64,000 nucleotides of DNA, taken from the NCBI RefSeq assembly GCF_053078305.1, contig NZ_CP166875.1. The stretch is one strand, 5' to 3'. A program made the translations under genes and the position numbers. Below, piece after piece: positions 12,058 through 12,898 of the stretch. Each line of letters starts with the position of its first letter. The first letter of the stretch is position 1. A model generated the notes under the pieces. The model saw nothing but the letters and a program-made list of their open reading frames with translations. It did no database searches and was not told the origin of the DNA. Source of the stretch: a plasmid.

Positions 12058-12472
12058 TGACGCTGGCGGGGAAAAATCTCCGCCTTTTCCTGCCGGTCCC
12101 CGGACAGAGCACAAAGGATGTCGCCGCAGGCTCCGCTTTACCCGGCCATGCGGGGCATGGCCTTGTGGGTTTTCAGTTATGTGGCCTCAGCGTCGTGTGC
12201 GGGCTGTGCCGTGCCTCCATCGTAGCCGGGCTTCTGCGGGCGGGTTGCAAGGTAAGGTGAACCGCTGCGGTCACCCGGTCCCTCCTTCCCGTCTGCCGTG
12301 ATTTTCCGGTCGTTCACCCGCTCAGATTTCGCGGTCTCACCCTCCAACTCCCGTCAGCCGTGTGCGTCAGGCTGCGGCTTCCCTTGCGCCCTTGCAACCC
12401 TGCAGGCCCGGCAAAGATGGAGGCACGGCACCGCCCGGTGTCGCGGAATATGTGAACAACGGAGGAAATCCC

Positions 12473-12898
12473 ATGCAGTATGCGAAATCTGTCACTCTGA
12501 ACGTTGAAGAGTGCGACCGCCTTTCTTTTCTGCCTTACCTGTTTGGCAACGATTTTCTGTATGCCGAGGCGTATGTGTACGCGCTGGCGCAAAAAATGAT
12601 GCCGGAATATCAGGGAGGGTTCTGGCATTTCATCCGCCTGCCGGACGGTGGCGGTTACATGATGCCGGATGGCGACCGTTTTCATCTGGTCAACGGTGAA
12701 AACTGGTTTGACCGCACTGTGAGTGCTGATGCCGCAGGTATCATCCTGACTTCCCTTGTGATTAACCGCCAGTTGTGGCTGTACCACGACAGCGGTGATG
12801 CGGGACTGACACACCTGTACCGGATGCGCGATGCGCAGTTGTGGAGCCACATCGAATTTCACCCCGAATGCAACGCGATTTACGCGGCACTGGACTGA
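12473..12898 (+). CDS. klcA: Antirestriction protein, ArdB/KlcA family (141 aa)
   Basis: Translation MQYAKSVTLNVEECDRLSFLPYLFGNDFLYAE...ADAAGIILTSLVINRQLW shares the conserved spacing of ArdB/KlcA proteins (FLP..FG.DFL...GG.W.F..L..GG..M.P...VN.E.W...ADAAGIILT). Confidence 0.8.
   Translation: MQYAKSVTLNVEECDRLSFLPYLFGNDFLYAEAYVYALAQKMMPEYQGGFWHFIRLPDGGGYMMPDGDRFHLVNGENWFDRTVSADAAGIILTSLVINRQLWLYHDSGDAGLTHLYRMRDAQLWSHIEFHPECNAIYAALD

Follow-up and report, generated by a model that had tools for sequence, protein, structure and literature searches.

A class 2 single-stranded DNA promoter hairpin probably drives the anti-restriction gene klcA during entry of an IncF plasmid

Results

klcA is separated from the preceding operon by non-coding DNA

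We sought to determine how klcA, the gene at 12473-12898 (plus strand) of a 64-kb stretch of plasmid DNA, is expressed. Hereafter, the window means the whole of this stretch. From the letters alone, the original prediction had read the gene as an ArdB/KlcA antirestriction gene and the DNA in front of it as a possible single-strand promoter. The first reading was confirmed by the 141-aa product, which has full-length similarity to proteins in the PDB (2kmg KlcA, E 8e-18 over residues 11-141; 2wj9 ArdB, E 2e-8). In addition, the gene is 95% identical in nucleotide sequence to yfgB of F, and its homologues carry the annotation 'antirestriction protein' in thousands of plasmids. A Shine-Dalgarno sequence, GGAGG (12461-12465, plus strand), lies 7 nt ahead of the klcA ATG.

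The gene upstream (11242-12057, plus strand; 271 aa, yffB-like) is the final gene of the preceding operon. In CP057501, F and pESBL, its annotation reads hypothetical protein, and its nucleotide identity to F and pESBL is 88%. It is followed by a terminator-like hairpin, GGCGGGGAAAAATCTCCGCC, and then a T-run (12065-12094, plus strand; site 12065-12084 in the terminator scan), and the alignment places an equivalent hairpin and T-run in F and in IncI plasmids. Since this hairpin closes the upstream operon, klcA needs a promoter of its own.

The interval between the two genes, 12058-12472, has a GC content of about 66%. The ORF list contained 68-69 aa ORFs and a GTG-extended klcA within it. These were rejected, and coding is ruled out, because indels of 4 nt and of 1+4 nt, which break the reading frames, separate two alleles inside its ORFs. 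The earlier impression that the interval held no convincing ORF was therefore correct.

The interval folds into a hairpin of 246 nt

The original prediction proposed a comparison of the secondary structure of both strands with that of shuffled controls, and in this comparison the region folded far better than its shuffles. As single-stranded DNA, the minus strand of 12058-12473 reached -105.3 kcal/mol, compared with -83.5 ± 4.7 kcal/mol for its shuffles (z -4.59; none of 100 shuffles as good), while the plus strand had a z of -4.65. The fold energy of the whole interval does not discriminate between the strands, and so is not decisive as to which of them acts. For the core, 12190-12447, the minus strand reached -76.0 kcal/mol compared with -53.7 ± 3.9 kcal/mol (z -5.66; 0/200 shuffles as good). 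When members of the family were compared, the transferred strand (T-strand) was more stable than the plus strand by 3-10 kcal/mol (3.4-10) in all four of them.

The hairpin formed by this core occupies 12196-12441 on the minus strand, with a fold energy of -74.9 to -76.0 kcal/mol, and it ends 32 nt short of the klcA ATG. It is built on an inverted repeat of 32 nt, 91% complementary, between 12200-12231 and 12406-12437 (both minus strand). The former is the non-template (3') arm, carrying the base stem and the GC clamp, and the latter is the template (5') arm of the base stem, which is GC-rich and comprises 16+5 bp. A second helix pairs GGGTTGCAAGG at 12242-12252 with CCTTGCAACCC at 12390-12400, matching at 11/11 positions. 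The earlier reading had noticed this second repeat and placed its first half correctly; the other half had been put at 12389-12399, one base off. It had also mentioned further palindromes, and these do exist and include the much stronger repeat of the base stem. Between the arms lies an apical domain (12263-12385, minus strand) of weak structure and high conservation, with identity of 122/123 to F and 118/123 to pESBL, compared with 88-95% for the flanking genes.

We also scanned the minus strand of window positions 1-30000 in 300-nt windows, using the published criterion of less than -75 kcal/mol per 300 nt. Five sites were clearly below this value (eight non-overlapping windows). The hairpin upstream of klcA was one of them, with -85.4 kcal/mol at 12141-12440; of the other four, three were large repeats and one lay ahead of a methylase gene. 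A sixth site, 821-1120, was set aside, as its GC content accounts for its energy.

The hairpin is an orthologue of known class 2 promoters

The interval aligned end to end with the yffB-yfgB gap of F and with the hairpins that precede klcA and ardA in pESBL. By blastn, identity to the pESBL klcA-upstream copy was 89.2% over 418 aligned columns (window 12058-12468). Identity to the ardA-upstream copy was 87.5% from window 12114 onward, the point at which the likeness begins despite different upstream genes. The conserved 5' flank of the cassette (12115-12199, plus strand) is 92-94% identical to F and pESBL and contains a small hairpin, GCCATGCGGGGCATGGC (12145-12161); a second terminator-like site was called at 12149-12167.

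The two hairpins of pESBL, an IncI1 plasmid, were described by Wen et al. (NAR 2025, PMC12672017) as 'class 2' single-stranded DNA (ssDNA) promoters, distinct from class 1 (Frpo/ssi); according to these authors, they are also conserved in F. The copy in F, located in the yffB-yfgB gap, was named ssp2 and controls yfgB (ArdB/KlcA); its deletion lowers transfer into restricting hosts (bioRxiv 10.64898/2026.01.09.698686). The window element resembles ssp2 in its flanking genes (yffB-like upstream, klcA/yfgB downstream), in its hairpin layout and in its near-identical base stem, and the two are similar in stem length and energy (-76 kcal/mol here and -80 kcal/mol in F). It resembles the pESBL elements in leading-region position, strand logic and fold criterion. 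pESBL, however, has two class 2 copies, while the window has a single copy and no ardA.

The element upstream of klcA is thus this plasmid's copy of the already known class 2 ssDNA promoter (ssp2/PklcA/PardA), and no new kind of element. Its homology to the published promoters of F and pESBL lends support to the predicted role as a single-strand promoter serving klcA, and a reading of raw sequence had thereby recovered a promoter class described only in late 2025.

Putative promoter elements and a model for klcA expression

The window belongs to an IncF plasmid in which the transferred strand is the minus strand, that is, the template of klcA. On the minus strand, a nic-like site is found at 25949-25965, flanked by a transglycosylase gene and traM, and traJ and FinP map to 26.75 kb. 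In F, the nic sequence is present exactly on the minus strand of the corresponding locus, where the genes have the same orientation as in the window. This places the hairpin within the leading region and immediately before klcA, whose template is the transferred strand.

Within the hairpin, we assign candidate boxes on the non-template arm (both minus strand). The hexamer TACGAT (12219-12224), mismatched to the opposite arm at two of its six positions in the fold, would serve as the -10. The hexamer TTGCAA (12245-12250), fully paired in the 11-bp helix 12242-12252/12390-12400, would serve as the -35. Both are weak, with 4/6 consensus positions each, but they point in the correct direction for klcA and are conserved family-wide. 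Their spacing is abnormal: 20 nt separate them on the non-template arm, and on the template arm the spacer measures 15 nt. Opposite the -10 lie positions 12413-12418 of the template arm, whose plus-strand reading, AAAGAT, makes a poor -10 in double-stranded DNA. Linear readings are thus TTGCAA-15 nt-AAAGAT on the plus strand and TTGCAA-20 nt-TACGAT on the minus strand. From promoter geometry only, transcription is predicted to start at an A at 12425 (plus strand), 7 nt past the -10 position, giving a leader of 48 nt. These box and start-site assignments may differ from the published ones.

Herein, we describe how the hairpin would act. During conjugation, the minus strand would enter the recipient with its 5' end first from oriT (~25.95 kb), and bases 12196-12441, while still single-stranded, would snap into the 246-nt hairpin. 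Its stem would rebuild a sigma-70-like promoter out of the paired -35 helix TTGCAA, the GC clamp and the -10 TACGAT, with the built-in mismatches holding this -10-like hexamer partly open. Host RNA polymerase would then initiate in the stem near 12425, using the same strand as template. klcA, which heads the operon that the hairpin would serve, and the small genes that follow it would be transcribed before the complementary strand exists, so that the plasmid would be protected against restriction at once. Synthesis of the complementary strand would then abolish the hairpin and turn expression off, because neither arm alone carries a usable promoter.

Alternatively, an ordinary double-stranded promoter could drive klcA, with the hairpin acting in RNA as a terminator, an attenuator or a processing site for read-through. 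The plus strand, and with it an RNA copy, closely matches the minus strand in fold quality, and the terminator-like sites 12065-12084 and 12149-12167 would suit such a role. If this were the case, however, a conventional promoter should be present, and the original prediction had itself named transcription from such a promoter only as evidence against a single-strand promoter. No sigma-70-type promoter was predicted on either strand of 11800-13000. A search of 11900-12700 against Rfam returned no covariance-model match at E<=1, and none at the gathering score. The T-strand folds better in every member compared, and a conserved mismatch in the -10 has no rationale in an RNA hairpin. Moreover, the pESBL orthologues are induced specifically in transconjugants, with start sites mapped at the hairpins by 5' RACE (PMC12672017). 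We regard action at the RNA level as highly unlikely. Given the homology, the fold, the orientation and the conserved motifs and mismatches found here, together with the published function of the orthologues, it is very likely that the interval is a class 2 ssDNA promoter driving klcA during plasmid entry.

Two alleles differ in the -35/spacer module

The window carries allele A, the common second allele of the element, which is found in about 1,400 PLSDB plasmids and in which the -35/spacer module is remodelled. The characterised copies, from F and pESBL, are all allele B. Between the alleles, the two arms of the -35/spacer module share only 42% and 72% identity, yet a helix of 11-12 bp is retained there in both. 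In comparison with F ssp2, the window has TTGCAA instead of TTGCAT at the -35, and TACGAT instead of TAAGAT at the -10. A bulge of 4-5 nt is located on the non-template arm in the window (spacers 20/15) and on the template arm in F (15/19). We infer that allele A acts in the same manner as its counterparts in F and pESBL. It is conceivable, though unlikely, that the opposite placement of the bulge makes the two alleles tune promoter strength or stall time differently. Hybrid alleles also occur, which suggests recombination.

Promoter motifs and position are conserved across the family

We next compared 137 copies of the element, 134 of which could be parsed by direct motif parsing. The downstream gene was always klcA (~100 copies) or ardA (~34), with the element directly 5' and in sense orientation. 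The non-template hexamer was TAAGAT or TACGAT in 134/134 parsed copies, and a non-matching hexamer on the opposite arm was kept in 131 of them. Rare natural variants with a fully paired -10 exist. The last base of the -35 covaries with its partner, forming T-A in 32 copies and A-T in about 94, with a mismatch in 9.

RNAalifold reported no compensatory pairs (0) on a MAFFT alignment of mixed alleles, in which the indel-rich -35 module was misaligned. The count was therefore redone with allele-B-only rows and direct motif parsing. One diverged copy (L041) had three compensatory pairs, one of them in an apical helix; none of 500 shuffles reached that count, and slid controls gave 0-1. As the majority of stem pairs do not vary, and 13 pairs per arm were fixed by the search pattern, the covariation amounts to few events, three of which come from L041 alone. 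On the T-strand, G.T cells outnumbered A.C cells by 123 to 17 (9 vs 6 by columns), a bias that is partly circular, as the structure came from the T-strand fold. Taken together, the sequences of the 137 copies support a hairpin that would act as a promoter.

The element is present in ~5,900 of 72,556 PLSDB plasmids. Among the matches listed, all relatives had at least 88% DNA identity or at least 89% protein identity. A scan of genome contigs with an apical 21-mer recovered 9 near-identical loci, several of them on evidently contaminated contigs. Neither the PLSDB matches listed nor this contig scan contained a class 2 hairpin outside IncF/IncI-type leading regions. Some metagenome copies have a variant apical segment.

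Such a distribution raises the question of whether the element is a palindromic repeat cassette, selfish or neutral and without any function, that passed from plasmid to plasmid. A unit of ~340 bp precedes klcA or ardA, two genes unrelated to each other, in those ~5,900 plasmids, and the hybrid alleles point to recombination. However, a cassette of this kind is not expected to keep its orientation and position fixed relative to anti-restriction genes, to conserve its apical domain more strongly than the neighbouring coding sequence, or to undergo compensatory changes, and deletion of the F copy gives measurable phenotypes (10.64898/2026.01.09.698686). Lack of function is accordingly extremely improbable.

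Class 2 hairpins and the other ssDNA promoters of the window

The class 2 element is the klcA-specific member of the ssDNA-promoter set of this plasmid. The window contains three Frpo-like (class 1) repeats, at 13737-14380, 17070-17713 and 22713-23356. These are the three large repeats detected by the fold scan, and they share 93-95% identity with the DNA ahead of ssb in F, the location of Frpo. Frpo and ssi1-3 are reportedly class 1 ssDNA promoters, in work attributed to Masai and Arai in 1997 and to Bates and colleagues in 1999. When 12115-12460 was compared with the window by blastn, it matched only itself, with no similarity to the three large repeats. The possibility that the klcA hairpin is a diverged Frpo was therefore rejected, and the suggestion that it belongs to a different sequence family from the large repeats was upheld. 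Class 1 works on the principle proposed here for class 2: a T-strand hairpin rebuilds a -35 and a -10, the -10 contains mismatches, and activity is confined to ssDNA. In both size and stability, the class 2 hairpin falls short of class 1 (-76 to -85 kcal/mol, compared with -90 to -102 kcal/mol for class 1). The window also has a homologue of class 3 at 9550-9890. Class 3 (ssp3, upstream of the M.EcoGIX methylase gene) is likewise a non-Frpo hairpin promoter of the leading region, but its sequence is unrelated to class 2 (PMC12672017), and ssp3 is reported to have no roadblock activity (10.64898/2026.01.09.698686). From ssDNA promoters, a conjugative plasmid can express anti-restriction, anti-SOS and other establishment genes during the seconds that precede conversion of its DNA to the double-stranded form, and the spread of resistance plasmids is thus subject to control at these promoters.

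The layout of the class 2 hairpin, which is similar overall to the Frpo type, could also mean that it serves mainly as a single-strand initiation signal, priming complementary-strand synthesis rather than transcribing a gene. Frpo-type hairpins make primer RNA in vitro, and the ssp1 promoters of F seed early conversion in vivo (PMC12672017; 10.64898/2026.01.09.698686). In F, however, class 2 differs from class 1 in exactly this respect: ssp2 delays complementary-strand synthesis and the loci just past it convert late, with early conversion events at ~4% at yfgB compared with 24-48% at loci downstream of ssp1 promoters (10.64898/2026.01.09.698686). The invariable position of the 137 copies directly 5' of klcA or ardA, in sense orientation, fits a promoter. 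A principal role in priming thus has very little probability.

A different role, a structural one, could be read from the delay itself. F ssp2 blocks complementary-strand synthesis until UvrD resolves the hairpin, and when ssp2 is swapped for ssp3, transfer into some hosts is not fully restored (10.64898/2026.01.09.698686). The selected role might consequently be that of a roadblock that keeps the leading region single-stranded, with promoter activity secondary, or absent in allele A; the GC-rich base stem of 16+5 bp and an energy close to that of F would suit such a function. Nevertheless, ssp2 also drives yfgB (10.64898/2026.01.09.698686), and a simple roadblock needs neither a conserved -35 and -10, nor a -10 mismatch, nor a fixed site before anti-restriction genes. 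As the selected role, a roadblock is very unlikely; as an activity, it complements the class 2 promoter and is not exclusive of it. By analogy with F, the GC-rich stem of the window hairpin probably also stalls complementary-strand synthesis coming from the yffB side until it is unwound by UvrD, and such a stall would keep the leading genes near oriT single-stranded for longer.

A G-tract motif on the template arm

Only ssp2 stalls synthesis and needs UvrD, and yet the hairpins of classes 1 and 3 are thermodynamically more stable. UvrD is a helicase able to unwind G4 DNA. A regular-expression scan found four G-tracts, GGGCCTGCAGGGTTGCAAGGGCGCAAGGG, on the template arm (12381-12409, minus strand), and no other canonical G-quadruplex motif was present on the minus strand anywhere in the 64-kb window. 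The equivalent motif is also the only one on the T-strand in the 20-kb F region examined and in the whole of pESBL. Dinucleotide-preserving shuffles of the core yield such a motif in 4.6-15% of cases, and its significance is speculative. The stall and the need for UvrD that are specific to ssp2 could be explained if the T-strand formed a quadruplex, or if the ultra-conserved apical domain were bound by a host factor, although we consider this explanation unlikely.

Several features of the element are potentially useful to the field, namely the two common alleles, the -10 mismatch kept in 131/134 copies, the variants with a paired -10 and the G-tract motif restricted to the T-strand. The four G-tracts survive in both alleles, despite the remodelling of the module around them.

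Locus and identity of the element upstream of klcA

The DNA between a 271-aa ORF (11242-12057) and klcA (12473-12898) spans 12058-12472. It was predicted to hold no convincing ORF, and this was borne out: the ORFs within it were ruled out as genes because the two alleles of this region differ by 4-nt and 1+4-nt indels inside them. The assignment of the downstream gene also held, as its protein resembles KlcA (PDB 2kmg, E 8e-18) and ArdB (2wj9, E 2e-8). The full-length anti-restriction ORF is intact in the window and has a good Shine-Dalgarno sequence; the full 426 nt are annotated in F and pESBL, and in the near-identical public record CP057501.1 the gene is annotated as 303 nt from an internal ATG (window 12596-12898). 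A terminator-like hairpin with a T-run (12065-12094) marks the end of the upstream operon. No sigma-70 dsDNA promoter was predicted on either strand in the region around the gap and klcA.

The gap aligns end to end with the yffB-yfgB gap of F and with its IncI plasmid counterparts 5' of klcA and 5' of ardA, those of pESBL (NC_018659) among them. Blastn gave 89.2% identity to the klcA-upstream region of pESBL and, from window position 12114 onward, 87.5% identity to the ardA-upstream region. These klcA- and ardA-upstream elements were found by homology-independent hairpin mining and named class 2 ssDNA promoters (Wen et al. NAR 2025, PMC12672017); their starts were mapped by 5' RACE in transconjugants, and they were stated to be conserved in F (PMC12672017). 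In a 2026 preprint the F copy is termed ssp2 and controls yfgB, an ArdB homologue; complementary-strand synthesis halts at the end of the ssp2 stem, resolution of this stall needs UvrD, rifampicin does not remove it, and deletion of ssp2 reduces transfer into restricting hosts (10.64898/2026.01.09.698686). Since orthologous DNA has been published as class 2 promoters and as ssp2, the original prediction of a single-strand promoter serving klcA is supported, and the observation behind it is confirmed. The element is real and belongs to a family already published and experimentally characterised; the window allele is a common variant of that family, undescribed in detail, not a new kind of element.

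The window contains one class 2 copy. Within the window, blastn found no similarity between this copy and the three large repeats at 13737-14380, 17070-17713 and 22713-23356. The repeats share 93-95% identity with a stretch of F located 5' of ssb, the published site of the Frpo (class 1) promoter, so the proposal that the klcA-upstream element comes from a different sequence family was correct.

Folding and anatomy of the hairpin

The predicted inverted repeat is present in the gap. Its left arm, GGGTTGCAAGG, lies at 12242-12252 as proposed, while the complement lies at 12390-12400, one base from the proposed position. A larger inverted repeat with 32-nt arms (12200-12231 and 12406-12437, 91% complementary) encloses this pair, and the two repeats together form one hairpin at ~12196-12441.

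As ssDNA, the gap folds better than shuffled controls on both the minus strand (-105.3 kcal/mol against -83.5+/-4.7 for shuffles, z -4.59) and the plus strand (z -4.65). The hairpin core alone reaches -76.0 against -53.7+/-3.9 kcal/mol (z -5.66), a value equalled by 0 of 200 shuffles. In all four members tested, the fold of the transferred strand (T-strand) was better than the plus-strand fold by 3.4-10 kcal/mol. A 300-nt sliding-window scan of the minus strand across window positions 1-30000 singled out five places that lay clearly under -75 kcal/mol (eight non-overlapping windows): the klcA-upstream site (-85.4 kcal/mol), the three large repeats, and 9561-9860. A sixth scan window, 821-1120, fell barely below this mark and was accounted for by its GC content.

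Read on the transferred strand, the fold begins with a base stem of 5 + 16 pairs, followed by the candidate -10 hexamer TACGAT (12219-12224, minus strand) on the non-template (3') arm; the hexamer has mismatches to the template arm at two of its six positions. Next come a 7-bp GC clamp (GCCGGGC), an asymmetric internal loop, and an 11-bp helix with the candidate -35 hexamer TTGCAA (12245-12250); an apical domain of 123 nt closes the hairpin. Along the non-template arm the candidate hexamers are 20 nt apart; along the template arm the spacer is 15 nt. From these putative -35 and -10 assignments, transcription is predicted to start ~7 nt past the -10, near 12425, which would leave a 48-nt leader with GGAGG at 12461-12465. 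The ~85 nt 5' of the hairpin (12115-12199) are kept between klcA and ardA cassettes despite different upstream genes. Within them a small hairpin, GCCATGCGGGGCATGGC, precedes GGGTTTTC; the stretch may act as a terminator packaged together with the promoter, or may belong to the stall site.

Two alleles of the class 2 promoter

The window carries one allele (A), and F, pESBL, R64, ColIb-P9 and R100 carry another (B). The alleles are 84-97% identical in the base stem and 96-99% identical in the apical domain (122/123 for window against F); the flanking genes are 88-95% identical. The sharp difference is limited to the -35/spacer module, where identity falls to 42% in the left arm and 72% in the right, with an 11-12-bp helix kept in both alleles. 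Allele A has TTGCAA as -35 and TACGAT as -10, whereas allele B (F, pESBL) has TTGCAT and TAAGAT. A 4-5-nt bulge sits on the non-template arm in allele A and on the template arm in allele B, and the non-template and template spacers are 20 and 15 nt in A against 15 and 19 nt in B. As duplex DNA, neither arm of either allele combines a 16-18-nt spacer with a good -10, which would explain silence in dsDNA.

The allele A left module was present in 1,391 PLSDB records, against 4,546 with its allele B counterpart; allele A is thus common, and no account of it is given in the literature consulted. Four metagenome contigs (L028, L045, L079, L123) carry hybrid hairpins, with the non-template arm of allele A and the template arm of allele B. 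Counted with their flanks these are 250-251 nt long (226-227 nt from one search anchor to the other); both spacers are long, and the -35 helix contains a T.T mismatch. Recombination or chimeric assembly could account for them.

Comparative support for the promoter hairpin

A metagenome scan anchored on the base stem yielded 120 loci which, with other loci, gave 137 copies and 77 distinct sequences. The next gene downstream is klcA in ~100 copies and ardA in ~34. All 134 parsed copies have TAAGAT or TACGAT as the non-template hexamer, and in 131 of 134 the plus-strand (dsDNA) hexamer opposite is TTTTAT or AAAGAT; the -10 mismatch is therefore conserved. Two rare variants on metagenome contigs (L052:10127-10376 and L090:2575-2821) have a fully paired -10 (TACGAT/TACGAT or TAAGAT/TAAGAT). 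They might have gained a dsDNA-competent -10, or could be sequencing or assembly artefacts.

The last -35 base and the base it pairs with covary (T-A in 32 copies, A-T in ~94, mismatched in 9), in a comparison where 13 pairs per arm are fixed by the search pattern and most stem pairs are invariant. Copies with the allele A background include both T-A and A-T pairs. The diverged copy L041, in the allele-B alignment, has three compensatory pairs: the -35 helix contains two of them and an apical helix the third; 0 of 500 shuffles reach this count, and slid controls give 0-1. On the T-strand, G.T cells outnumber A.C cells by 123 to 17, a contrast that is just 9 to 6 by columns and that concerns a structure itself derived from the T-strand fold. 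Together with the published phenotypes, the comparative and fold evidence counts against two other explanations, namely a hairpin acting at the RNA level behind a normal promoter and a neutral palindromic cassette.

In several copies (L018, L038, L058, L062, L067 and others) ~35 nt of the apical domain are swapped for a different local hairpin, GGACGCGTTTTCGCGGACGG; this domain is thus not invariant, despite the 99% identity between window and F. Contigs of GTDB genomes labelled Streptomyces morookaense, Oscillospiraceae, Oscillibacter, Collinsella and Acinetobacter idrijaensis (L004, L005-L008, L012) carry enterobacterial plasmid leading-region DNA almost unchanged, most likely through contamination or mis-binning of assemblies.

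Transferred strand and proposed mechanism

The window is, by its sequence, an F-like plasmid. Rfam matches include the traJ 5' UTR and FinP (26.75 kb) and sok (22.1 kb). The closest PLSDB record is a conjugative plasmid of type IncFIA/FIC (99.7% identity), whose leading-region genes follow the usual order. In the collinear locus of F, the minus strand carries the exact F nic sequence. In the window a nic-like site, GTAGTGTGTGGTGCTTT, lies on the minus strand at 25949-25965, between a transglycosylase gene and traM; its two mismatches to F nic probably reflect a different F-like relaxase specificity group. As both sites are on the minus strand, this is the transferred strand. It would enter 5' first from ~25.95 kb and serve as template for all plus-strand leading genes, klcA included.

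The best-supported account is the published mechanism, transferred here by orthology. The incoming single strand would fold into the hairpin, and host RNA polymerase would recognise the rebuilt, partly pre-melted promoter, so that klcA and the next small genes (12945-13555) would be transcribed ahead of the complementary strand. Conversion to duplex would dissolve the hairpin and turn the promoter off. Complementary-strand synthesis, running left to right in window coordinates, would reach the stem base at ~12196 and, by analogy with F, pause there until UvrD acts; such a pause would prolong the single-stranded life of oriT-proximal genes. A priming site and a pure roadblock are both disfavoured by the same comparative, fold and phenotypic evidence, and a roadblock role is complementary to the promoter explanation, not exclusive of it.

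A G-quadruplex motif in the template arm

On its minus strand, the 64-kb window has a single canonical G-quadruplex motif (G3+ tracts, loops of 1-7 nt), located at 12381-12409 in the template arm of the hairpin. The homologous motif is the only T-strand one in the F region and in pESBL, and shuffles of the core yield such a motif in 4.6-15% of cases. A stall of synthesis is reported for ssp2 only (10.64898/2026.01.09.698686), and class 1 and class 3 hairpins were more stable than class 2 in the fold scan. UvrD unwinds G4 DNA in vitro, though weakly (PMC7337899). That a G-quadruplex accounts for the ssp2-specific stall is speculative and, in our view, quite improbable. A simpler account of the stall would be that the GC-rich base helix of class 2 is the longest without interruption, running for 16 contiguous pairs in the window allele and for 21 in F.

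Other hairpins in the window

A second non-Frpo hairpin lies at 9550-9890, with a T-strand fold of -97.1 kcal/mol (z -6.6). In pESBL its counterpart, 98.3% identical, directly precedes the M.EcoGIX methylase gene; identity to F is 93.9%. This hairpin is very likely the class 3 ssDNA promoter (ssp3) that serves the methylase at 9891-10574, and an ORF annotated as a hypothetical protein in public records overlaps it. The three large repeats are ~640 bp each, with a T-strand fold of -184 kcal/mol over 701 nt (z -9.8), and after the third, at 23715-23813, there is a fourth copy truncated to ~100 bp.
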